Source: a virus | Strand: one strand, 5' to 3' | DNA length: 18,454 nt | UHGV virus genome: UHGV-0237303 | Shown here: in pieces, positions 7,038 to 17,941 of the stretch | Layout: each line of letters starts with the position of its first letter | How positions within the stretch are numbered: the stretch's first letter is position 1 | Notes under the pieces: model-generated | What the model was told of the DNA's origin: nothing | What the model saw: the letters and a program-made list of their open reading frames with translations, nothing else | Databases searched by the model: none | Made by a program: the position numbers and the translations under genes

Positions 7038-7457
7038 ATGGACAGATACTTCTATTCACAAAAAGAAAATGGTTTTTTTACCGATTTAAATAAAGCACCT
7101 TCAGATGCTGTTGAGATAACCACGGATGAATGGCTGTCACTACTGGATGGTCAGGATAATGGCATGAAAATAGTCAGCAATCAGGAGGGATATCCGGTTT
7201 TGACAGAGCAACCACCTTTATCAAAAGAAAACCTTATTGCATTAGCAGAGTTGAAAAAAGGAAAACTTATTAATGAAGCCAACGAGCACATGAACAGCAG
7301 GCAATGGCCTGGTAAAGCGGCTATTGGTCGTCTGAAAGGTGAGGAACTGGCGCAATATAATTTGTGGCTGGATTATCTGGACGCACTGGAGCTGGTCGAT
7401 ACTTCCAGTGCGCCAGATATTGAATGGCCTACGCCTCCGGCAGTTCAGGCCAGATGA
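7038..7457 (+). CDS. Tail fiber assembly protein (P2 gpG/Tfa-like), cassette currently in the expressed orientation
   Basis: 139 aa, 3 nt downstream of the H stop; C-terminus ...LDYLDALELVDTSSAPDIEWP is shared with the opposite-strand Tfa (...LDYIDAVTVTDTSTAPDIIWP). Confidence 0.75.
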   Translation: MDRYFYSQKENGFFTDLNKAPSDAVEITTDEWLSLLDGQDNGMKIVSNQEGYPVLTEQPPLSKENLIALAELKKGKLINEANEHMNSRQWPGKAAIGRLKGEELAQYNLWLDYLDALELVDTSSAPDIEWPTPPAVQAR

Positions 7458-8022
7458 TATCCGGCGCGGTGCTGGTATCTGTTACCGTCACCGCGTCAAT
7501 GTAATCCAGCACGGCGTTAAGTCGGGTTGTTTCTGCCTGCGCCAACTTCCGTCCGGCCTGCAATTTCAGTTGAATCAGACTAATGGAAGCCATTGCAGTA
7601 TCAATCAGTGACTGACGTTGTGCTTCTGCCGCGTCTACTGCGGCGCTATGCTGTGCCTCGGTATCCGTCACCCATTTCTCACCATCCCATTTATCGTATG
7701 GCGTTAACGGTGAAAGCGTGACATAACCGTCTTTGATGGCACCGATATAATCCACTGTAACAGCTGCGCCATTTTCTGTTGAGTAAACAGTCTCATTGCG
7801 ATGGTCTTCTTCATGGCTCCATCCCTTACCCGTAAATACTGCCACTTTTCCCGGAATGTTTTCGCCAGGGTCAATACCAGTGGAACAGGCGGGCATACTT
7901 ACGCCAGTATTAATATATTCATCAGACCAGCCCGTATACTCAGATGTTTCAGCATCATAATAAAAACAACGCATATCGCCCGGCACTGTAGCCAGCCCAT
8001 TTTCATCAAAAACAGGTTTCAT
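7429..8022 (-). CDS. Alternative tail fiber assembly protein (Tfa'), silent orientation
   Basis: 197 aa on the minus strand; conserved Tfa C-terminus; converges on and overlaps the + strand tfa by about 29 nt; start overlaps the stop of the alternative fiber cassette (TAATG). Confidence 0.7.
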   Translation of the reverse strand: MKPVFDENGLATVPGDMRCFYYDAETSEYTGWSDEYINTGVSMPACSTGIDPGENIPGKVAVFTGKGWSHEEDHRNETVYSTENGAAVTVDYIGAIKDGYVTLSPLTPYDKWDGEKWVTDTEAQHSAAVDAAEAQRQSLIDTAMASISLIQLKLQAGRKLAQAETTRLNAVLDYIDAVTVTDTSTAPDIIWPELPEA

Positions 8023-8477
8023 TATTTAGCCCTCACCAGAAAGTTAAATGCAATATTTCGCGGTCTGACAGCAACAAAATTCACACCATCACCCACAGAG
8101 TTACTGGTGAAATTAAATCGTGAAAATCCTGGCTGATTTCCGGCGATGCCATCATGAAAGTTAATTGCGTGTCCCGCACCTTCGCCTATATTCCCGGCAA
8201 ACTGAGAAAAGTTTGTAGCTGCCTGCCAGCTTAATAATTCACGACCACCGTCTGCACCTCGCCCGTCATCCCAGATACGAATGAAATCACCGCGGGCTTC
8301 AGGTAATACCAGCGAAGGAAACACTTTCGCCAGCACAGGATAATCAGTGGCAGAGAATTTCGCGCCGTTGAACTTCAAAAACACCATACTGGACCAGCTG
8401 TCGATTACAGTATTTGGCATTGCAGCGGACGGCCAGAAGAACGGAACGCCAATAGCTGGAGAACCTTCTCCCAAACC
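8022..8477 (-). CDS. Alternative tail fiber C-terminal cassette (H'), no start codon of its own; expressed only after inversion fuses it to the constant part of H
   Basis: Minus-strand frame reads GLGEGSPAIGVPFFWPSAAM... from the crossover core at 8478/8479, with the same GLGE junction as the current H; the track ORF 8022..8519 extends further 5' only because the frame stays open across the site. Confidence 0.65.
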   Translation of the reverse strand, partial: GLGEGSPAIGVPFFWPSAAMPNTVIDSWSSMVFLKFNGAKFSATDYPVLAKVFPSLVLPEARGDFIRIWDDGRGADGGRELLSWQAATNFSQFAGNIGEGAGHAINFHDGIAGNQPGFSRFNFTSNSVGDGVNFVAVRPRNIAFNFLVRAK

Positions 8478-8491
8478 AACGTTTAAGAAAA
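8466..8491. repeat. Right 26-bp invertase crossover site, inverted relative to the left site
   Basis: + strand TTCTCCCAAACC-AA-CGTTTAAGAAAA; reverse complement TTTTCTTAAACG-TT-GGTTTGGGAGAA has inner arm and core identical to the left site; lies about 55 nt upstream of the invertase start. Confidence 0.65.
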
Positions 8492-8546
8492 TGCAGAGAT
8501 TACGGCTAACTGGCATCATCCCCGGTTTTTATTCAGGGGATCCATC

Positions 8547-9146
8547 ATGCTTATTGGCTATGTCCGCGTATCAACAAATGACCAGAATACAGAATTGCAG
8601 CGTAACGCGCTGGAGTGCGCAGGATGTGAACTGATTTTTGAAGATAAAATCAGCGGAACGAAATCAGCCAGACCGGGATTGAAAAAACTGCTCAGAACGC
8701 TATCAGAAGGAGATACGCTGGTTGTCTGGAAGCTGGACAGACTGGGCAGAAGTATGAAACACCTGATCACGCTTATTGAGGAATTGCGGGAAAAAGGTGT
8801 TAATTTCCGTAGTCTGACGGACAGCATTGACACATCAACACCCATGGGGCGTTTCTTTTTTCACGTCATGGGAGCTTTAGCCGAAATGGAACGTGAATTA
8901 ATTGTAGAGCGTACACTGGCCGGGCTGGCAGCAGCACGCGCACAAGGACGCATTGGCGGACGTCGCCCGAAGTTGACAAAAGAACAACACGAGCAAATAG
9001 CGAGGCTGATTAAAAACGGTCATGACAGGAAACAACTGGCGATCATTTACGACATCGGCATATCGACGATTTATCGTTATCACCCTGTAGGCGATATACA
9101 GGCTGAAGAAACAACTAGGCAGACTCAGGAAAATGAAAACCGCTAA
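8547..9146 (+). CDS. Serine recombinase, DNA invertase (Gin/Hin/Pin/Cin family)
   Basis: 199 aa; N-terminal catalytic motif MLIGYVRVSTNDQ with the active-site serine, resolvase/invertase core (GDTLVVWKLDRLGRS), C-terminal helix-turn-helix; adjacent to the invertible segment. Confidence 0.85.
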   Translation: MLIGYVRVSTNDQNTELQRNALECAGCELIFEDKISGTKSARPGLKKLLRTLSEGDTLVVWKLDRLGRSMKHLITLIEELREKGVNFRSLTDSIDTSTPMGRFFFHVMGALAEMERELIVERTLAGLAAARAQGRIGGRRPKLTKEQHEQIARLIKNGHDRKQLAIIYDIGISTIYRYHPVGDIQAEETTRQTQENENR

Positions 9147-9165
9147 TCTGACCATTAGCGGTTTT
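9135..9165. terminator. Bidirectional rho-independent terminator between convergent invertase and U
   Basis: Perfect 12-bp stem AAAACCGCTAAT / ATTAGCGGTTTT with 6-nt loop CTGACC; A/T runs on both sides so it can serve both strands; overlaps the invertase stop codon. Confidence 0.55.
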
Positions 9166-9172
9166 GCGTTAA

Positions 9173-9667
9173 TCAAAACAGCCCTTTAACGGAGCTGGCC
9201 GCGCTGTTAAGGGATGATGTGACCTTATCTTTGAAGCCGGACAGCATATCACTGAACGATGAGGATTGCAGGCGCTCCCGCAAATCCTCATCACAGCGTT
9301 CAAGAGTCAGTGAAAATTCTATCTTTTTCGCCTTACCGTAGCGATCAAACTCGGAGCGGGTCGTATTCGTTCCGGTCAGGACATACATGCCGTAAATCTG
9401 CCCGACACCATCAATCAGAGGCCAGGGGCGTCCTGTATATGCCTGCGTGGTCAGCAACGAAAGCGATACTTCGCCACCTGTAATTTCAGGATAAAGCACA
9501 CCAGAAAGAACGATGCGATCATCGCCTGCCCCGATATACTGCCAGCTTGCTGAACGGTTAACGCGTTCATTTTTCACATGCCGCCAGCTTTTGTTTTGCT
9601 GTAACTGCTGATGCGGCAGCGTGCGCAGCTCAAAAACAAACATGCCGTAGATCATCATCATGGCCAT
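9173..9667 (-). CDS. U: Tail protein (P2 gpU-like)
   Basis: 164 aa (P2 U about 159 aa) immediately downstream of the tape measure gene on the minus strand. Confidence 0.65.
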   Translation of the reverse strand: MAMMMIYGMFVFELRTLPHQQLQQNKSWRHVKNERVNRSASWQYIGAGDDRIVLSGVLYPEITGGEVSLSLLTTQAYTGRPWPLIDGVGQIYGMYVLTGTNTTRSEFDRYGKAKKIEFSLTLERCDEDLRERLQSSSFSDMLSGFKDKVTSSLNSAASSVKGLF

Positions 9668-9673
9668 GACTCC

Positions 9674-12517
9674 TCAATCTTTATCGTAAAAACTGCCACG
9701 CCCGGCACGGGCGCGCCGTTCCATTTCTGCCCTGACCATTTCACCGACCAGTTTCGCCAGTTCGCGGGGATTCTGTGTAACAACGTTATGCAGATGAACA
9801 TGAATTTCACCGCCAAATCCGGAAGCAACAGGCTCCCGGTTACGGGAAGTTGCAGGAACTGATGCCACTGGCGATCGTATGGCCTCTGCCACCGGGCGGG
9901 AGCTGGCCGCAACAACAGGGACCAGCGCCGGAGGCAGCGGAGCCGGAACCACAGGTGTGATATTAATTGCGGGGGCAGGCTTACTGACCTGCGCAATCTT
10001 CCGCTCCTGCCACTCCCCACGAACAGCAAGTGCGCGGGGCAGGTTCTTAAAGACAATATCGCCGGGGCCAATACGTTTTTTCGTCTCATCAACCAGCTTA
10101 CCTGTGTTATCAGCAATTTTGCTGAGTCTGCGTAGCGTACCGGTATTGCTGTCTGTGAGCGGTTTGTTGTCTTTGGGTTTATCACCTCCGGTGCCATTGC
10201 CATTTTCCACAGGCTTCGGCGGATTGATTTTCGCCAGGTCCCCCTGAAGCAAGGCAACCTTGTCCTGAAGAATGGCCGCACGCTGTGCGTCTTCGATTTT
10301 CTTGCGCGCCCTTTCCGCTTCATCCGGAAGCACACCGAGCTTTTCAAGTATCCACGCTAGCGTATCCAGCAACATTTTTGCAGGTGTCAGAACAAGTTGT
10401 AACGCACCGCCAAGAACGTTACCGAATGTCTCGCCAGCACTGGTACATTTATCCAGCGTTTCCTTGCTGGACTCCATCGGTGACAGCAGCGATTTAAACC
10501 AGTTAAACACCTGGCTGATCCCACTCCCGATTGCGTCAAAAACAGGACCAAACCGTTCAAAGGTTTCGCGCAACGGGGTCAGCCTTTCCATAATCCCGCT
10601 GAACACCCCGGCAAAAAATGCCCTGATGGGATCCCAGTATTTCCAGATAAGGACGGCAGCTCCGGCAAGCGCAGCCACGATAAGACCAACCGGACTGAAC
10701 AGCGCCCCGATAGCGCCTCCCAGTAAAGAAACGGAACCCGTCACCATTCCCCACAGTGCTGGCAGGACCCTGACAGCATTCATTGATCCGGTCAGGAGAG
10801 AAAAACCAAGGCGCAGTTTTGCCAGCGGACCAGCAAGCACACCAATAGCCAGCGACAACGAGCCAACCGTTGCAGTCATTGCCAGCAACGCACCGCCTGC
10901 TATCAGTAGCTGGCGCGTCAGTGCCGGATGGGCCTGCGCCAGCGCCGTCACCCTTGATACCACCCGCGTGAGCCACTGCGTGACAGAACGCAGCGGACCG
11001 TCAATCAGATCTGCAATGCGGATGCGCAACCCTTCCCATGCACTGCCGAGTGATTTCAGATCGCCGTCAAGGTTGTTGGCCATGACCTTTGCTGTGCGTT
11101 CAGCCTCACCGCGCGCGCCTTCAAGTTCTTTTCTCAGTTTAGGTAAGGAACCGTCACCCGCTGCATCAACGAGCGCCATAAACGATGTGAAAGCCTCTTC
11201 TCCGGCAATGTCCTTAAAGAACGATACCCGGTCAACTTCCCCGTATTTGCGGGTGGCTTTATAAAGGTCGGCCAGCACATCCTCCATCGGGCGCATTTTG
11301 CCGTTCGCGTCAGAGACTGCCACACCAAGCTCTTTCAGCGCCTCTGCTGCTGCCTTTGGCGGTGATGCCAGACGAGCCAGGCTGGCACGCATTGCCGTCC
11401 CAGCATCACTCCCTCTGATACCCATATTCGCCAGCACGCCCGCCATCGCTGCGGCCTGCTCCAGCGATATTCCCAGCTTACCCGCCACCGGACCTGCATA
11501 TTTCATGGTTTCGCCCAGTGCGCGAAGGTCAGTGTTGGTACGGGTAAATGCTGCGGTGAGCGTGTCGCCAACCCGGTCCATCTGGTCAGCAGAAAGGCCG
11601 AACTGCGTCAGGATATTTGAGCCAATATCCGCCGTCTCGCCGAGATCCATGCCGCCAGCCGTTGCCATGCTCAGCACGCCCGGAAGCGCAGCCTGAATGG
11701 CCTGCGGAGTGAAGCCAGCCATTGCAAGAAATGCCTGCCCACTGGCGGCATCGCCTGCGGTGAACTGCGTTTCAGAGCCAAGTTTTAACGCCTGCTCACG
11801 CAGCGCCTTAAACTGCGGGCTGTTCTGGTCGATTCGCGTCAGTGCCTGAACGCGGGACATCTCTTTGCCGAACCCGATCGCAGGCTGCAAAAAACGCCCG
11901 GCAGCATAGCCGCCAGCCGCTGCCGCACCAATTGCCAGCGCACCACCTGTTTTCAGTTTTCCCGCGGTTTCCTGCACGCGCGAATACCGCTCACGCGCCC
12001 GCGTTACACGCGCAAGCGCCTGCCGTTCGCGTTCAAGCTGGTTGTTGTACTGTTCGGTGCGTCTGATGGCCTGCTGGATGGTGTTATCGCTGCCTGTCAG
12101 GGAAATGCCGTGGCGTTTCAGCTCTCCGCCAAGCTCCCGCATTTTCTGAATTTCCCGTGTGCGCGATTCATTCAGGCGTTCAAGCCGGGTGCTTAACTGC
12201 TGCATCAGCTTTTGTTGTTTTTCGCTGAGCACTGTACCCGTGCGTTGTAACTGATTAAGGGCGTTAAGCTGGCGTCGCGCTTTCACGATACCCGCATCCG
12301 CTTTACTGACAGCGTCGCGGGCGCGCTCAAATGAACGCGCCTGACGCTCGAGATTTTTGATCGCCCCCTGCGTTCGCTGGATGGAGTCACCAAACTGCCC
12401 CATCAGGCGGCGGGCGTTTTCGGCAGGTCGGGTCAGCCTGTCAACGGCGCTGAAAGCGACCCGGATATCAAGAGTCTTCATTGTCTGCATTCCCGCTGCG
12501 AAGTGCCGCCCGCTCAC
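9674..12517 (-). CDS. T: Tail tape measure protein (P2 gpT-like)
   Basis: 947 aa, largest ORF; Ala/Gly/Gln-rich, long helical N-terminal part, hydrophobic Gly/Ala-rich central stretch; GTG start; position after E/E'. Confidence 0.8.
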   Translation of the reverse strand: MSGRHFAAGMQTMKTLDIRVAFSAVDRLTRPAENARRLMGQFGDSIQRTQGAIKNLERQARSFERARDAVSKADAGIVKARRQLNALNQLQRTGTVLSEKQQKLMQQLSTRLERLNESRTREIQKMRELGGELKRHGISLTGSDNTIQQAIRRTEQYNNQLERERQALARVTRARERYSRVQETAGKLKTGGALAIGAAAAGGYAAGRFLQPAIGFGKEMSRVQALTRIDQNSPQFKALREQALKLGSETQFTAGDAASGQAFLAMAGFTPQAIQAALPGVLSMATAGGMDLGETADIGSNILTQFGLSADQMDRVGDTLTAAFTRTNTDLRALGETMKYAGPVAGKLGISLEQAAAMAGVLANMGIRGSDAGTAMRASLARLASPPKAAAEALKELGVAVSDANGKMRPMEDVLADLYKATRKYGEVDRVSFFKDIAGEEAFTSFMALVDAAGDGSLPKLRKELEGARGEAERTAKVMANNLDGDLKSLGSAWEGLRIRIADLIDGPLRSVTQWLTRVVSRVTALAQAHPALTRQLLIAGGALLAMTATVGSLSLAIGVLAGPLAKLRLGFSLLTGSMNAVRVLPALWGMVTGSVSLLGGAIGALFSPVGLIVAALAGAAVLIWKYWDPIRAFFAGVFSGIMERLTPLRETFERFGPVFDAIGSGISQVFNWFKSLLSPMESSKETLDKCTSAGETFGNVLGGALQLVLTPAKMLLDTLAWILEKLGVLPDEAERARKKIEDAQRAAILQDKVALLQGDLAKINPPKPVENGNGTGGDKPKDNKPLTDSNTGTLRRLSKIADNTGKLVDETKKRIGPGDIVFKNLPRALAVRGEWQERKIAQVSKPAPAINITPVVPAPLPPALVPVVAASSRPVAEAIRSPVASVPATSRNREPVASGFGGEIHVHLHNVVTQNPRELAKLVGEMVRAEMERRARAGRGSFYDKD

Positions 12518-12997
12518 GCCAGCTAACCACTTCGCCGGGCGTCATCATGAAGATTTCGGCGGGCGACCAGTTAAAAATAACGGCAATATCTGCCACAAAG
12601 TCTTCTATGTGCTCAAAGCACACAACCGTGATCAGGCTTCCGTCGCCTGTTCGTTCTTCCCGCCAGAGTCCGCACCGCTCAAAAAATTTACGGCAACCAC
12701 ACATAACTGAATAAAGTCACGGGATGCCATTTTTTTGATCGTCACTTCATCCAGTCGCGGTGATGTCACGCGTGACAACAGCGTAAACATGGATTCCGCT
12801 TTCAGATTCAGCACATCAGACAGCGACAAATCTCGCAGAGATCCAGCCTGCTCAATAGCCCCGGTGATCTCCACATACGTGATTTTTTCGCCGCCTCGCT
12901 CAATGGATTGGGTAAGTTTTACGCCACGCTCACTGGTTTCTTTCACAGTGTCAGCAACTACCGTGTTTTCGGTATCGATGTTTTTCGTCTCTTTCAT
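12468..12997 (-). CDS. E+E' fusion product made by programmed -1 ribosomal frameshift
   Basis: Zero frame reads ...AAT TTT TTG (N104 F105 L106); the -1 frame ORF 12468..12704 reads straight through the same heptamer (...KFFERCGLW...); predicted fusion about 170 aa. Confidence 0.6.
12632..12997 (-). CDS. E: Tail assembly chaperone (P2 gpE-like), zero-frame product
   Basis: 121 aa between tail tube and tape measure genes; contains a TTTTTTG slippery heptamer near its 3' end with a -1 frame ORF running on past it. Confidence 0.7.
   Translation of the reverse strand: MKETKNIDTENTVVADTVKETSERGVKLTQSIERGGEKITYVEITGAIEQAGSLRDLSLSDVLNLKAESMFTLLSRVTSPRLDEVTIKKMASRDFIQLCVVAVNFLSGADSGGKNEQATEA
12680..12686 (-). 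other. Slippery heptamer T TTT TTG for the E/E' -1 frameshift
   Basis: Located by codon position from the ORF track (E codons 104-106); same heptamer as reported for P2 E/E+E' (recalled from memory). Confidence 0.6.
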
Positions 12998-13051
12998 CAG
13001 GAAACTCCTTTCAGTCAGAGGCGACGCACTGCGCCGCCTGCATATTACTTA

Positions 13052-13564
13052 TCAGCCAAGCCCAAGCGCGGAACGGATGCGATCGGGCACAATGTCCTTG
13101 CCGTCCTTCCGGTAAATGAAGTTCAGCAGGTCAATCTCCCACAACGGACGATCGTTAACACTCAGCTTGTAGTAGGTGTTTTTAATGGCGTAAGTGTGTG
13201 ATGTGGCTTCGCCCTGTTTGGCTTCCCCCATATCAATTTCCGTCACACGTCCGCGCATTTCGACTTCATACAGGTCGCTTTCTGCATCGGTGTAGTATTC
13301 ACCCGCAAAACGCAGCAGCGTGCCGTCAATCGTGCCGCCATACTTAAGGAACAGCTCACGAACTGCGCCCCCCATGACAAAGCTCGCATCAAGCGCGGAG
13401 TCGTCCAGACCGAGATCAATACTTACCGCCCCCATCATGCCACCACCCCGGTAGCTGTCGGTTTTGCGCGTCAGCTTAGGCAAAGTGACGGACGTCACCT
13501 TACCCACTTCGTTTTCACCATCCACAAACAGCGTAAAAAAGCGAAGATGTTTTGGCACAGCCAT
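13052..13564 (-). CDS. FII: Tail tube protein (P2 gpFII-like)
   Basis: 170 aa (P2 FII about 172 aa) directly downstream of the sheath gene; start overlaps the sheath stop. Confidence 0.8.
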   Translation of the reverse strand: MAVPKHLRFFTLFVDGENEVGKVTSVTLPKLTRKTDSYRGGGMMGAVSIDLGLDDSALDASFVMGGAVRELFLKYGGTIDGTLLRFAGEYYTDAESDLYEVEMRGRVTEIDMGEAKQGEATSHTYAIKNTYYKLSVNDRPLWEIDLLNFIYRKDGKDIVPDRIRSALGLG

Positions 13565-14748
13565 CAGGCACCTCCCAGCACCGCAAATGCGGGTTCAAAG
13601 TATTCATCAGTAAACGTCTGGTAAAGCTCCATGTCTTCCAGTGGCGGAACGGGCGTATATTTGTAGCGAATACGCACACGCCCCTGACGTAAATCCGTGG
13701 TGCTGTTATCCACCACGTCATACCAGCACTCCGCGCCAATCAGTTTCCCGGCAGTCACCAGTGAATCCAGTTTTGCCCTGATGGCACTGATAACATCCTT
13801 CACGTTCGCAGGCGTCAGTGGACTGTCGATGGTTTCAAACTGCGCTTCCGCAATTGAATCAGCCAGCACCTGTGCGGTTCGGGTATACACCTCAAAAATG
13901 TAGGCGTTCGTTTCCGGTGTGCGGTTGCCCCAGAAGCGGAACCCGTTGCGACGAATAATGGTCGTGATTTCTTTGTTGTTGAGGCTGTTGGCATCGCTGT
14001 CTTCGGCCTGCAACGACCAGAACACATGCCTCGACATCCCCAGCACATTTTTAACCGGAACGTTGGACAGCGATTTGTGCCAGCCCTGCTCATGGTCAAT
14101 GTACGCACGAAGGCCGCACGCATAAGCAGGCGCGGGGAACGTTTCGTTTTCGCCACTTTTCGGGTTGTAGGCGATGAAGTCCGGCCATAAGAGCATCACT
14201 TCACGTTCGTTGAATTTCTGGCGGTAGGTAATCGCTTCAGCCATCGTGTTACAGCCGTGACATGAGGCATACACAAATGCGCGCAGTTTACCCGCAATCA
14301 CGCACAGGGATTTTGTCACCGCCTCCGTGTCCAGCTCCGGCGCGGCCAGAATACGCGGACGGTATCCGATGCTTTCATCCTGCTCTGCAACAAGCAGCGC
14401 ATACATCCCCGTATAGCTGCCGTCATCCTCAGAACCACCGATAACCAGTTGATCCTGCGTCTTTTCGTCTTCTTCTTTGTGTTCAGCCACGCGAACGACG
14501 ATCACCTTTGTGCTCACCTGGTCTGCGATGGCCTTAAGCGCACGATAAAGCGTCCCCGTTGTTCCGCATTTTCCCAGCACGTCATTGACGCGGGTCAGCA
14601 GTGTGGGCTTGTTCAGCGGGAACAGCTTCGCGTCCGCATCATCCGCCGTTGCCACGATACCGATAACGCTGGAATCAACATCGTTAATCGCTGTTACCAG
14701 GTCGGTATTTTCCGTAACACGGGCACCATGAAAACGAGTTTCACTCAT
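13564..14748 (-). CDS. FI: Contractile tail sheath protein (P2 gpFI-like)
   Basis: 394 aa (P2 FI about 396 aa); AAGGGG Shine-Dalgarno upstream of the ATG; first gene of the minus-strand FI-FII-E-T-U block. Confidence 0.85.
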   Translation of the reverse strand: MSETRFHGARVTENTDLVTAINDVDSSVIGIVATADDADAKLFPLNKPTLLTRVNDVLGKCGTTGTLYRALKAIADQVSTKVIVVRVAEHKEEDEKTQDQLVIGGSEDDGSYTGMYALLVAEQDESIGYRPRILAAPELDTEAVTKSLCVIAGKLRAFVYASCHGCNTMAEAITYRQKFNEREVMLLWPDFIAYNPKSGENETFPAPAYACGLRAYIDHEQGWHKSLSNVPVKNVLGMSRHVFWSLQAEDSDANSLNNKEITTIIRRNGFRFWGNRTPETNAYIFEVYTRTAQVLADSIAEAQFETIDSPLTPANVKDVISAIRAKLDSLVTAGKLIGAECWYDVVDNSTTDLRQGRVRIRYKYTPVPPLEDMELYQTFTDEYFEPAFAVLGGA

Positions 14749-14904
14749 AGCTTCAGCCCCTTGTATCCGTTAAATGATTCGGCAACAATCATCACCCACC
14801 ACGCGCGTAATCTCACCCCTGCGCCGTTCTCCCGCCACGGCGACAACAAAAAGCAGTAACCCCCTCCGCACGCACATGCGACCATGCCACACAGGGAGGG
14901 AGCA

Positions 14905-16015
14905 GATGACCGACACCACCATGCAATTGCTCAGTCAGGGCACAGACCCCGTGAAAATGCCGGATTTTGATATTCTCGCGGAGGGTAAAACGCTGTCAGG
15001 CGTGGCAGAGCGCCTGATGAGCCTGTCACTGACCGACAACCGGGGATTTGAAGCGGACCAGCTCACCATCACGCTGGATGATGCGGATGGTCAGTTGCAG
15101 CTACCGCCACGGGGCGCGCGCCTGACGGTTCTCATTGGCTGGAAAGGAGAACCGCTGACAGAAAAAGGCACTTACATTGTTGATGAAATCGCTCACGAAG
15201 GACCGCCGGACAGGCTGACTGTTTCAGCCAGAAGCGCAGATTTTCGGGATGAATTTAACGTTAAACGTGAGGTGTCCTGGCATGATGTGACCGTTGAGCG
15301 TGTGGTATCCGCCATCGCTCATCGGTACGGTCTGAAACCGCAAATCAGCGAAATGCTGATGGATATCGAAATCGACCACGCCGACCAGACCGAAGAAAGC
15401 GACATGTCCTTCCTTACGCGCATGGCGGAAATGCTGGGCGCAATCACCACGGTAAAAAGCGGCAATCTGTTATTCATCATGCCAGGTGGTGGCGTGAACG
15501 CACAGGGCCAGCCGTTGCCCTCGTTCGCCATTACACGCAGCAGTGGCGATCGCCATCAGTTCCGCATTGCTGACCGCGAGGCGTATACGGGTGTACGCGC
15601 CTACTGGCTTGATCTTAATTACGGGAAAAAGAAAAAAGTCAGCGTGAAACGCCGCAAACCGCCAAAACCCAAAAAGGAGAAAAGCAGCAGCCGTGAAGGT
15701 GATTATATGGAAGGCGCGGAAGGCAATGTGTTTGTGTTACGCAAGACTTATCAGAACGAGCAGGCAGCAAGACGCGCAGCGGCGGCAAAGTGGCAGCAGC
15801 TACAACGCGGAGCCGCATCATTCTCCATCATGCTGGCACGCGGACGCGCAGAACTCTACCCCGAAATGCATGGCACGGTAACAGGCTTTAAAAGCGAGAT
15901 TGATAATCAGGACTGGATTATTGCAAAAGCCGAGCACACCATTGATAACAGCGGCTTTACCACACAGCTTGAGCTTGAGGCAAAAATCCCGGAATGGATA
16001 GCAGAAACAGAGTGA
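14905..16015 (+). CDS. D: Late control / tail protein D (P2 gpD-like)
   Basis: ATG at 14905 with GGGAGGG Shine-Dalgarno (internal Met of track ORF 14774..16015); 370 aa (P2 D about 387 aa); lysine-rich central linker (KKKKVSVKRRKPPKPKKEK). Confidence 0.7.
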
Positions 16016-16083
16016 GCAACTTAGACATATTAGCTCAGACTTAAACTGGCAAGTTTACAGTATAGAATTAAACATAAACGACG

Positions 16084-16107
16084 GTCCGCTCCGTGTCAGA
16101 AGCGGAC
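16084..16107. terminator. Candidate hairpin terminator between convergent D and the 340-aa orphan gene
   Basis: 7-bp GC-rich stem GTCCGCT / AGCGGAC with a 10-nt loop; T-rich tract follows on the minus strand. Weak (large loop). Confidence 0.3.
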
Positions 16108-16135
16108 TTTGTCATCCCTATGTAAGGTTGATTGC

Positions 16136-17158
16136 TTAATACGCATTTAATTTAAATTTGTATTTGCCTTCTATGTAATGGATAAATTCAATTATGCTTT
16201 TTTCTATCGCATCTAATATATGAATATATCCATCCCGATTTAAGGTCCTATCCAACTCAAAGTGATGAACTATCCCATGTCTATATTGTATGATTTCAGA
16301 AATTCGATTCTCAAGAAAATCAACTGATTTTCCAATTCTTTTTTTCTTATAAAGAATCGCTCTCACATCTATATCCAGCCACTCTTTATATGCTTTGTTT
16401 AGGTGAGTTAAGTTTTGAAAAGTGTAATTTCTTGCAATAACACTTTCTATTGAAATATTTCCTTTCTCTATCTCAAGCAGAATATCAAAATCAACTTTTT
16501 GCTTATACGATGTTCTTTTTGCTATTGCGAAAGGATCGTACTTTATAAGTATTTGAAAAGCTCTAGAGAAAAAATATTCAAACATAGCAACCGCAAAAGG
16601 TACTAATCCATTATATATAACTCTACTGGGATCCATACATTGCATGTAATCAAAGTATTCGGATAAGCCGCCATCTTCCGGTAGGTTTAATTTAATAGAA
16701 GGTTCAGGTAAGGCATGTTTAACAGCGGAAATCTCATGATGGACATGATTAAATATTGAAGAAATGCCGCGACTGATCGGACTACTAGAATCCTTCCATA
16801 GAGGAGCGTACCTATTTTTCCCATAATCACCTATAAGTGTTCCACCAAAAAGACTCCTTGCGCCTTTTAGAACATCATTAAGCATTTTTACATCATGCCA
16901 ACTAGCGCTATATAAATTACGCACATGCAATGCCCATTTATTACCAGATATGTGTAGTTCGTCATTTGAAACAGGATATATATCAGCCGAAACTCCATCT
17001 GTAGATTTGAAGTCCGTATCATCAAACCAAGAGTAATTCAACGTTCCTTGGGGCCATTCCCACAAATGTTTACACCTTTTAAAACCTAAATTTTCAAGGT
17101 AATTTTTAAGTTCGTTTCTAGTTGCTTTTTTAGGGTACAGCGTTATATCTCTTCCCAT
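16136..17158 (-). CDS. Hypothetical 340-aa protein on AT-rich acquired DNA; candidate accessory/defence protein (possible HEPN-like R-x4-H motif)
   Basis: Single long minus-strand ORF with AT-rich, Ile/Lys/Asn/Tyr-rich codon usage unlike the flanking phage genes; AGGTGA Shine-Dalgarno about 8 nt upstream of the ATG; no resemblance to any P2 structural protein I can recognise; C-terminal YRHGIVHH. Confidence 0.6.
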   Translation of the reverse strand: MGRDITLYPKKATRNELKNYLENLGFKRCKHLWEWPQGTLNYSWFDDTDFKSTDGVSADIYPVSNDELHISGNKWALHVRNLYSASWHDVKMLNDVLKGARSLFGGTLIGDYGKNRYAPLWKDSSSPISRGISSIFNHVHHEISAVKHALPEPSIKLNLPEDGGLSEYFDYMQCMDPSRVIYNGLVPFAVAMFEYFFSRAFQILIKYDPFAIAKRTSYKQKVDFDILLEIEKGNISIESVIARNYTFQNLTHLNKAYKEWLDIDVRAILYKKKRIGKSVDFLENRISEIIQYRHGIVHHFELDRTLNRDGYIHILDAIEKSIIEFIHYIEGKYKFKLNAY

Positions 17159-17349
17159 GCTTTATTCACCTGATATACAATATTTTAAATTTTAACTATT
17201 ATGAACGTATGAATTTTCACATTGGATGTATGGAAGTTCAACAACTATTGAAAGTTCAATTTTCACTCTTCGCACAGAGCGAGCTGTTAGTTGGAATTAG
17301 GGATCGTACAATCTAGAATAGCGGCAACACCACGTTAAGGGAGGTCGCT

Positions 17350-17610
17350 ATGTTCCGTTGTCCGCTTTGTGGCGCATCTGCCCGTATCCGCACAAGTCGT
17401 CCGGAAAATGATTCAAACACCGTGCGGCAAAAGTATTACCAGTGTAACAATCTGGAATGCGGCATATGCTTCTCAACACTGGAAGCTTTCCATAAATTCA
17501 CATCGAAACACGCCTCCGGCGTTCACTCTTCAGAAGGTATCCCGTGGCATGAGCTACCAGCTTCACACAGGGGAAACAATCAGATGAGTTTGCCTTTACC
17601 TCAGAATTAA
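17350..17610 (+). CDS. ogr: Ogr/Delta-family zinc-finger late transcription activator
   Basis: MFRCPLCGASARIRTSR...KYYQCNNLECGICF matches the remembered P2 Ogr pattern MFHCPLC...ARTSR...YHQCQNVNCSATF (C-x2-C...C-x4-C); strong AAGGGAGG Shine-Dalgarno; 86 aa versus 72 aa in P2. Confidence 0.8.
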   Translation: MFRCPLCGASARIRTSRPENDSNTVRQKYYQCNNLECGICFSTLEAFHKFTSKHASGVHSSEGIPWHELPASHRGNNQMSLPLPQN

Positions 17611-17800
17611 CAAGCAGAATTGCCGGAGTAACAAAAAAGCGATAGATTACGCGCGGGTGCCTTTCGGCTGATGGTCGGAGGGAATACCCGAAGGCCAGAT
17701 GTGGAAAGGCCCCGGAAAACACTTTTGTTTAACCGAGGCCCTAACCATCTACCCTAAGCAAGTGAAAGGTTAGCGCCTCTCCGGAAAAGGAGCAAGTGCT

Positions 17801-17941
17801 ATGTCGCAAAAATCGCTTACAGCCATCACGTTCTGCGTGACGGTAATCCTCATCATCTGGATGTTGCACGGTTCGCTGTGCGAAATACGGATGAGTTTCT
17901 GGGGAGCGGAGTTTGCGGCGTTCTTACAGTGTAAGCAGTAA
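17801..17941 (+). CDS. Hok/Gef-family type I toxin (small membrane peptide), 46 aa
   Basis: MSQKSLTAITFCVTVILIIWMLHGSLCEIRMSFWGAEFAAFLQCKQ: single TM helix with C-x-T and the family-typical SLCEIR motif; AAGGAG Shine-Dalgarno 8 nt upstream; below the 60-aa cutoff of the ORF track. Confidence 0.65.
   Translation: MSQKSLTAITFCVTVILIIWMLHGSLCEIRMSFWGAEFAAFLQCKQ

Follow-up and report, generated by a model that had tools for sequence, protein, structure and literature searches.

A predicted one-gene HEPN nuclease at the D-ogr junction of a P2-like prophage has an unusually conserved N-terminal domain

The viral genome UHGV-0237303, a stretch of 18,454 nucleotides that is referred to in its entirety as the window, carries a low-GC cassette at the junction between its P2 gene D homologue and ogr. 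Its sequence and structural model predict that the single gene of this cassette, which a prophage carries at a little-described cargo site, encodes a HEPN nuclease made up of one protein, the N-terminal domain of which is undescribed and unusually conserved. The evidence supports the view that the cassette is a moron with one gene, which a P2-like E. coli prophage acquired horizontally at a variable D-ogr site. Our preferred reading of the product, to which we assign a probability of roughly 0.55, is a sensor-plus-HEPN abortive-infection RNase that would remain latent until triggered. If the gene is protective, it would represent a compact module (1.3 kb, one gene, its own promoter) whose sensor domain is of a new kind, its conservation across phyla would render the trigger amenable to study and perhaps general, and P2-like prophages would be shown to trade cargo at the D-ogr junction, within the candidate ogr promoter. 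If it is not, it would be one more uncharacterised HEPN protein on a prophage.

Results and discussion

A low-GC cassette inserted between D and ogr

The cassette is flanked on the left by a homologue of the P2 gene D (late control D or tail protein; 14906..16015, plus strand; RefSeq and the ORF list) and on the right by an ogr/Delta-like zinc-finger late activator (17350..17610, plus strand; RefSeq annotation). On identical flank sequence, RefSeq labels these two genes as 'phage late control D family protein' and 'ogr/Delta-like zinc finger family protein'. The window composition shifts from a GC of 0.50-0.59 in D to 0.29-0.40 over approximately 16000-17300, and then returns to 0.45-0.51 in ogr, in agreement with the abrupt switch to AT-rich DNA after D and back before ogr that a first-pass annotation of the window had pointed out. 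Alignment of the window to an unoccupied D-ogr junction (L007) shows that identity is lost after 16021 and regained at 17314. The inserted low-GC cassette is therefore 1,292 bp in length (16022..17313, no strand assigned), with its ends situated 6 bp past the D stop codon and 36 bp before the ogr ATG. The sole phage record with the cargo gene is Escherichia phage 500465-2, a member of the Peduoviridae.

The D-ogr flanks were recovered in approximately 1,200 complete E. coli genomes, in 720 of which they form a contiguous, empty junction with the two genes 42 bp apart, and the cassette is present in 65 of the 5,426 complete E. coli genomes. Accordingly, the comparison of the D-ogr interval across related prophages, which had been proposed along with the first-pass annotation, reveals variable cargo (720 empty junctions versus 65 with the cassette), and the gene is far from being a fixture of this position in essentially all P2-like phages (65 of approximately 1,200), being missing from more than 90% of the related prophages. 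A spread sample of the D-ogr matches contains alternative cargo, all of it inserted within about 4 bp of one and the same point, namely a ComF-like phosphoribosyltransferase together with a 185-aa protein, a DUF3800 protein and several hypothetical proteins. Inclusive of both its non-coding ends, the cassette is 97.9-99.8% identical among E. coli genomes, and in one locus (L021) it adjoins a divergent ogr allele (81% at the nucleotide level); because of this identity through the ends and the divergent neighbour, the cassette is concluded to move as a unit between P2-like backbones. Presence or absence between conserved genes, alternative cargo at the same site and expression signals of its own are the features of a prophage moron at a cargo hotspot. 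The initial proposal of a moron at a variable site thus holds, now with empty and occupied junctions, alternative cargo and mapped insert ends behind it.

Published analyses of P2 hotspots (PMC9122126, PMC13586616) describe the A-Q locus (tin/old), the Z/fun locus and a broad 'downstream of GpL' class, and do not separately resolve the D-ogr junction. The site described here resembles tin/old (A-Q) and Z/fun (tail genes) in being a small locus with conserved phage genes on both sides and a high turnover of cargo, and the content of those loci is likewise of the defence type (PMC9122126, PMC13586616). It differs from them in that the cassette is placed at the D-ogr junction.

The cargo gene and its expression signals

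The only substantial ORF in the island (16136..17158, minus strand; ORF list and RefSeq) encodes a two-domain protein of 340 aa, which is recorded as WP_000532200.1 with the label 'hypothetical protein'. A Shine-Dalgarno sequence, AGGTGA, can be read from the sequence 7 nt before the ATG (17166..17171, minus strand), and upstream of it lies a promoter-like element of the form TTGAAC-17 nt-(TG)GAAAAT (17213..17241, minus strand; similarly read from the sequence), which is a candidate promoter of the cargo gene, with a score under the threshold of the promoter scan. A leader of about 100 nt that includes this element has been kept in E. coli, Pantoea, Hafnia and Mixta amid unrelated flanks, and this supports the cassette being a self-contained expression unit. 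Past the stop codon, a terminator scan recovers a terminator-like hairpin of 9 bp, six of which are G-C (16084..16107, minus strand). Thus, the opposite-strand 340-aa gene, the Shine-Dalgarno sequence, the AT-rich upstream region shared divergently with ogr and the downstream hairpin of the first-pass annotation could all be located. The hairpin is also readable on the plus strand, after D.

The same stretch bears on the idea that the gene is a toxin-type addiction or stabilisation module, wherein a HEPN toxin would be kept in check either in cis by the N-terminal domain or through an RNA antitoxin of the AbiF type that has escaped recognition, and whose main role would be the stability of the prophage or island as opposed to the blocking of other phages. 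We consider such a module unlikely: there is no second ORF in the cassette, the leader is devoid of tandem repeats (an 11-nt repeat in two copies is all that it contains), a search of the island against Rfam gave no match, and no partner gene is conserved in any of the contexts in which relatives occur. Since many toxin-antitoxin modules also act in abortive infection, this reading overlaps with the preferred one of an abortive-infection RNase and does not exclude it.

On the side of ogr, the cargo gene is separated from the divergent ogr ATG (17350) by 191 bp of AT-rich DNA. The promoter scan identifies a candidate ogr promoter in this region, a match to the consensus only, with TTGGAA (17291-17296) located 17 nt upstream of TAGAAT (17314-17319). 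As the candidate -10, TAGAAT, belongs to the conserved flank and the candidate -35, TTGGAA, to the cassette, the cargo may sit inside the candidate ogr promoter. A search of the whole window for the Ogr-type consensus TGT-N12-ACA returned no matches and is uninformative.

That the right end of the cassette supplies the candidate -35 of the ogr promoter, and that the cassette adjoins the very late-gene activator that P4 exploits, could be taken in favour of an RNase that benefits the P2-like phage itself. It might act in the phage's own cycle, for example by degrading host or competitor transcripts in lytic growth, or be directed against a P4-like satellite or host defences, and cargo of prophages is indeed not always defensive (PMC9122126). 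Nevertheless, we regard this as very unlikely, as the great majority of related prophages lack the gene, the same gene is found in non-phage chromosomal islets and in phyla without P2-like phages, and it is oriented away from the late genes and has a conserved promoter-like leader of its own.

The cargo gene is under strong purifying selection: the dN/dS is 0.12 in comparison with a 98%-identical E. coli allele and 0.07 with the copy from Pantoea, and relative to the allele of IHE3034 there are three synonymous and no non-synonymous differences. A selfish or decaying passenger without a current function has nothing specific in its favour other than the RefSeq label 'hypothetical' throughout, and is extremely improbable in the face of a dN/dS of about 0.1, an ORF that is intact in every copy examined and invariant catalytic residues.

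A C-terminal HEPN domain coupled to a conserved N-terminal domain

The AF2 model of the protein, computed with a 63-sequence alignment (pLDDT 94.3, pTM 0.87), is composed of an alpha/beta domain (residues 1-125), a long helix (127-149) that leads into a short variable linker, and a helical domain (166-333). The N-terminal alpha/beta domain with the long helix (residues 1-150), which we propose to be a sensor or regulatory region, is encoded by 16709..17158 (minus strand), and the predicted C-terminal HEPN domain of the RiboL-PSP-HEPN type (residues ~166-333) by 16160..16663 (minus strand). The string YRHGIVHH corresponds to residues 292-299 and R293-x4-H298 hence lies 42 residues from the C-terminus, as against the approximately 40 residues estimated in the first-pass annotation. 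The codons of the predicted Rx4H catalytic motif, R293-H294-G-I-V-H298, occupy 16265..16282 (minus strand). Across the 63 sequences, which extend down to 19% identity, R293 and H298 are invariant and H294 is near-invariant; elsewhere in the domain E194 and F247 are invariant, and N183 and Q248 near-invariant.

The Pfam profile PF18735 (HEPN_RiboL-PSP) matches the query at an E-value of 1.2e-4 over profile positions 29-189 of 191, with a score of 22.5 bits that is under the gathering score of 28.4. At E<=0.01, 47 of the 63 relatives match the same profile (best E-value 4.3e-10), and most of the database homologues carry a precomputed PF18735 call. Membership in PF18735 is thus indicated by profile matches at the level of the family and is sub-threshold for the query sequence. 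Foldseek searches against the PDB and BFVD gave no match at E<=1e-3. Judged by its motif of the Rx4-6H type (the invariant R293-x4-H298), the agreeing Pfam profile and a predicted all-alpha helical-bundle fold, the C-terminal domain is a HEPN domain, and the HEPN signature surmised from the motif at the outset is sustained. An L-PSP fusion or a ParB operon context was also looked for, and there is neither a PF01042 nor a ParB match in the protein, nor a conserved neighbour; this context gave the family its name and is not a requirement of the PF18735 domain.

The N-terminal domain has no sequence match in Pfam, NCBIfam, PHROGs or the PDB. Its fold neighbours are generic, namely the ZipA C-terminal domain, Med20, KA1, SirA, BamC and the spermine synthase N-terminal domain, and the fold matches are not RidA/YjgF-like. 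Invariant or near-invariant positions in it include G55, S86, D89, N94, FGG104-106 and G113. In the close set of relatives the column conservation is 0.85 for the N-terminal domain versus 0.79 for the HEPN domain, with the former being the better conserved of the two in 13 of 14 sequences; the N-terminal domain is therefore at least as conserved as the HEPN domain.

A widespread family across bacterial phyla

The first-pass annotation had described the product as an orphan of unknown family, and in this it has to be corrected: the protein is a member of a widespread and highly conserved family, the C-terminal domain of which appears to be of a catalogued type, RiboL-PSP-HEPN (PF18735; PMC3710099). 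In one database 295 clusters match, and the best 120 of these are all full-length, with identities of 64-99%, and come from Pantoea, Proteus, Shewanella, Aeromonas, Pseudomonas, Halochromatium and Methylococcaceae. An exhaustive phmmer search yields 284 clusters at the 50%-identity level, with full-length relatives of 320-365 aa down to approximately 22% identity. Consequently, the AT-rich single-gene moron between D and ogr of the original title stands, and its 'orphan' falls. The distribution was scanned in species-representative genomes with the closer alignment of the family. Copies with 57-88% identity occur in Gamma- and Betaproteobacteria, Desulfobacterota, Bacteroidota, Gemmatimonadota, Acidobacteriota, Patescibacteria and Latescibacterota; identity drops to 51% in a copy from a cyanobacterium and to 37% in one from a spirochaete.

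The 340-aa protein has no match in NCBIfam and only insignificant ones in PHROGs (E-values of 0.09 and 0.74), and a profile search of the PDB with the family alignment recovered nothing meaningful. The query has no matches at E<=10 in PADLOC-DB v2.0.0, the models of which include PD-T4-2, PD-T4-5, PD-T7-3, ApeA and AbiD/F/J/U/V, and searches with the 63 relatives yielded only two marginal, unrelated matches; the PADLOC comparison that had been suggested for the protein hence connects it to no catalogued anti-phage system. Neither the literature that could be searched nor the portions of the DefensePredictor supplements covered contained the accession WP_000532200 or peptide strings of the protein, and searches on PF18735 likewise yielded no study of it.

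Genomic contexts of the relatives

All-against-all BLAST of the neighbouring genes at approximately 35 loci found no neighbour gene that is common to them, and a partner gene was rejected on these grounds. The GC content of the gene is lower than that of its flanks in every locus examined. Several contexts are those of mobile elements or are rich in defence genes. The Pantoea copy is present in a lambdoid prophage along with a SIR2 PDC-S25 gene, that of Pseudomonas is part of an integrase-AlpA-DUF927 element and lies beside a UvrD-like helicase gene, and the Hafnia copy has a type VI retron RT and PDC-S08 alongside. Likewise, SIR2 genes are immediately upstream in contigs of Proteiniphilum and Halovibrio (L024, L041), and ThsA is 1.3 kb away in Ulvibacter (L034). 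IS3-type transposases are adjacent in two loci, with transposases or integrases being nearby in several, and the neighbours in some loci include a stand-alone RiboL-PSP-HEPN gene or a CBS-HEPN-like gene combining CBS and Rx4H. There are also copies, such as that at L015, that are found amid housekeeping genes without a mobile or defence neighbour. Taken together, a patchy distribution combined with placement in mobile elements or near defence genes was observed, with the defence neighbours being raw counts.

These contexts also allow one to weigh a cellular RNase of RNA processing or stress response, which would have no role in conflict and would merely have been spread by horizontal transfer. 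The very high conservation of both domains across phyla, the loci with housekeeping neighbours only and the naming of the Pfam family after fusions to the L-PSP endoribonuclease are in line with such a function. It is quite unlikely in light of the strain-specific distribution (as few as the above 65 of the complete E. coli genomes), the consistently foreign GC, the recurrence in prophages, in integrative elements and in the vicinity of SIR2, retron and HEPN genes, and the lack of a conserved operon partner.

A possible sensor-effector mechanism

On the basis of context, we infer that defence by abortive infection is the best-supported function of the gene, which is also the role that the first-pass annotation had proposed. 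Under the preferred reading of a latent abortive-infection RNase, the RiboL-PSP-type HEPN domain with R293-x4-H298 would be the cutting effector, and the N-terminal alpha/beta domain and the connecting helix would hold the enzyme back until a cue of infection is sensed. In the lysogen, the gene's own promoter would drive its transcription, with the late genes lying on the other strand. Upon infection by an unrelated phage, the cue would activate the HEPN site, probably through a rearrangement of a dimer or oligomer as in other HEPN nucleases, whereupon tRNA or another RNA might be cleaved, translation would stop and the infection would be aborted.

Several observations count against a defence role. 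For a defence gene, the degree of conservation is unusually high (57-73% identity across phyla, N-terminal domain included); no PADLOC model corresponds to the protein, its Pfam score is sub-threshold and Foldseek is without a match at the above cut-off; and there are the copies with housekeeping neighbours only (L015). The tight conservation of the N-terminal domain argues for a conserved cue as opposed to a variable phage protein. We tentatively entertain, at somewhat less than even odds, a more specific proposal: the protein could be the founder of an uncharacterised single-gene defence family, in which an N-terminal sensor without recognisable relatives reads a conserved cue and switches on the HEPN RNase, with D-ogr being a further discrete cargo hotspot of P2-like phages. 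Candidates for such a cue would be a nucleic-acid species, a nucleotide or a host factor, in contrast to a fast-evolving phage protein. A sensor of this kind would account both for the highly similar copies across many phyla and for the two domains being equally conserved.

Relationship to known HEPN defence systems

The RiboL-PSP-HEPN domain constitutes the Pfam family PF18735 (Anantharaman et al. 2013, PMC3710099), to which PD-T4-2_B of the validated PD-T4-2 system (PMC9519451) is assigned in the DefensePredictor supplement. The cassette protein resembles PD-T4-2_B in having what appears to be the same Pfam domain type, its C-terminal 160 residues matching nearly the whole profile together with the Rx4H motif. 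In place of the L-PSP fusion or ParB partner, about 150 aa at its N-terminus form a fixed and unrelated domain, and it is a one-gene module as opposed to the two components of PD-T4-2, with no PADLOC match at the permissive threshold used above. The clade of the Abi_2-type HEPN proteins such as AbiF and AbiD has been described as distantly related to RiboL-PSP-HEPN (Anantharaman et al., PMC3710099), and PD-T4-5, a distant relative of AbiF/D, is a validated single-protein HEPN defence (PMC9519451). These proteins and the cassette protein have in common that one gene of a mobile element encodes a HEPN effector, but the latter protein shows no sequence-level PADLOC match to them, has a different N-terminal domain and has no evident RNA antitoxin.

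HepS from the Gifsy-1 prophage of Salmonella (PMC13043305) senses a siphovirus tail-tip protein and cuts the anticodon loops of tRNAs. It is a single domain of 218 aa, in contrast to the 340 aa of the cassette protein with its separate, highly conserved N-terminal domain, and no sequence similarity between the two was detected. Identity of the cassette protein with DARNA/PD-T7-3, PD-T4-5, PD-T4-2_B, HepS or DS-11 was considered and ruled out by architecture and by the lack of a PADLOC match.

Parallels in organisation are offered by DARNA/PD-T7-3, which recognises ssDNA to which phage SSB is bound and cuts the anticodon loops of tRNAs, and DS-11, which has CBS and HEPN domains in one protein (PMC13092281). 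Like the predicted architecture of the cassette protein, both unite a HEPN RNase and a ligand-sensing domain in one polypeptide. In DARNA, however, the order of the domains is reversed, with the HEPN domain being N-terminal, and the sensor is an unrelated Pds5-like helical repeat, whereas the sensor of DS-11 has the unrelated CBS fold. Hence, beyond the HEPN fold, DARNA and DS-11 are analogues and not homologues of the cassette protein. Along with PD-T4-5 and HepS, they have been validated as defences that consist of one HEPN protein with a fused or intrinsic sensor.

Alternative cargo at the D-ogr junction and the candidate ogr promoter

The position occupied by the cassette, the 1,292-bp low-GC insert between the late control gene D and the late activator gene ogr, is also used by unrelated genes. 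Three E. coli junctions (L008, L009 and L010) carry cargo inserted within about 4 bp of the same point, namely a ComF-like PRTase with a weak match to the PsyrT C-terminus together with a 185-aa protein (L008, 1050-2197), a 389-aa DUF3800 protein (L009, 908-2077) and a 201-aa hypothetical protein in the O157:H7 strain FRIK2455 (L010, 969-1574). Each of these cargoes may itself have a role in defence. A promoter-like element directed into ogr, TTGGAA-17-TAGAAT (17291-17319), spans the edge of the insert, with its -10 hexamer contributed by the conserved flank and its -35 hexamer by the cassette; thus, any cargo at this point would swap the upstream half of the candidate ogr promoter. An exact match to TGT-N12-ACA, the Ogr-type activator consensus, was found nowhere in the 18.4-kb window, against 4.7 sites expected by chance. 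Either this form of the consensus is too strict or the lineage possesses a variant of it.

Defence-type neighbours of the HEPN gene

Homologues of the cassette's HEPN gene are accompanied by defence-type genes at several loci. In Aeromonas dhakensis (L003), the gene directly downstream of the homologue (9064-9957) encodes a 297-aa protein that combines a CBS domain with a C-terminal Rx4H motif (RNEIAH), an architecture shared with the validated single-protein CBS-HEPN defence system DS-11. In four taxa that are not related to one another, SIR2-family defence genes, either PDC-S25-like or ThsA, adjoin the HEPN gene or lie close to it (L024, 926-2227; L041, 4308-5900; L034, 3282-4721; L012, 449-1936). 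This proximity could reflect plain clustering in defence islands or a functional link.

Database records carrying the cassette

A 4.2-kb contig assigned to a 'Planococcaceae bacterium' MAG (L021, DEQA01000038.1) bears the cassette at 99.7% nucleotide identity, with a protein 100% identical to that of the window. The contig also has a D of P2 type and an ogr of divergent sequence. Its presence in a Firmicute bin is almost certainly due to contamination with enterobacterial DNA. The 'complete phage genome' of Escherichia phage 500465-2 (L001, NC_049343.1) runs on into host sequence with mnmC, fabB, an MFS transporter gene, flk and tagO. The record represents a prophage prediction with limits set too wide, not a genome as packaged in virions.

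Organization of the flanking genes

The tail genes FI-FII-E-E'-T-U (9173-14748) form a minus-strand block, and gene D (14906-16015) is encoded on the plus strand, indicating that the block is inverted relative to the canonical P2 order. Next to the block are an ORF for a DNA invertase (8547-9146) and tail-fibre segments in inverted orientation (7429-8519). Since D diverges from FI across a 157-bp spacer, it requires its own promoter. The start of D is annotated differently among records, yielding products of 413, 369 or 266 aa (window, 14774-16015; RefSeq, L007-L011), and several of these RefSeq genomes name it 'contractile injection system protein, VgrG/Pvc8 family' and place a short pseudo-CDS over its 5' end.

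Directly past ogr lies a hok/sok-like locus (17655-17941), comprising a plus-strand Hok/Gef-family ORF (17801-17941) and a match to sok RNA (Rfam RF01794; 17655-17814; 51.8 bits, E 4.9e-10) that falls under the gathering score of 59. It is present in every related locus examined, irrespective of the D-ogr cargo.
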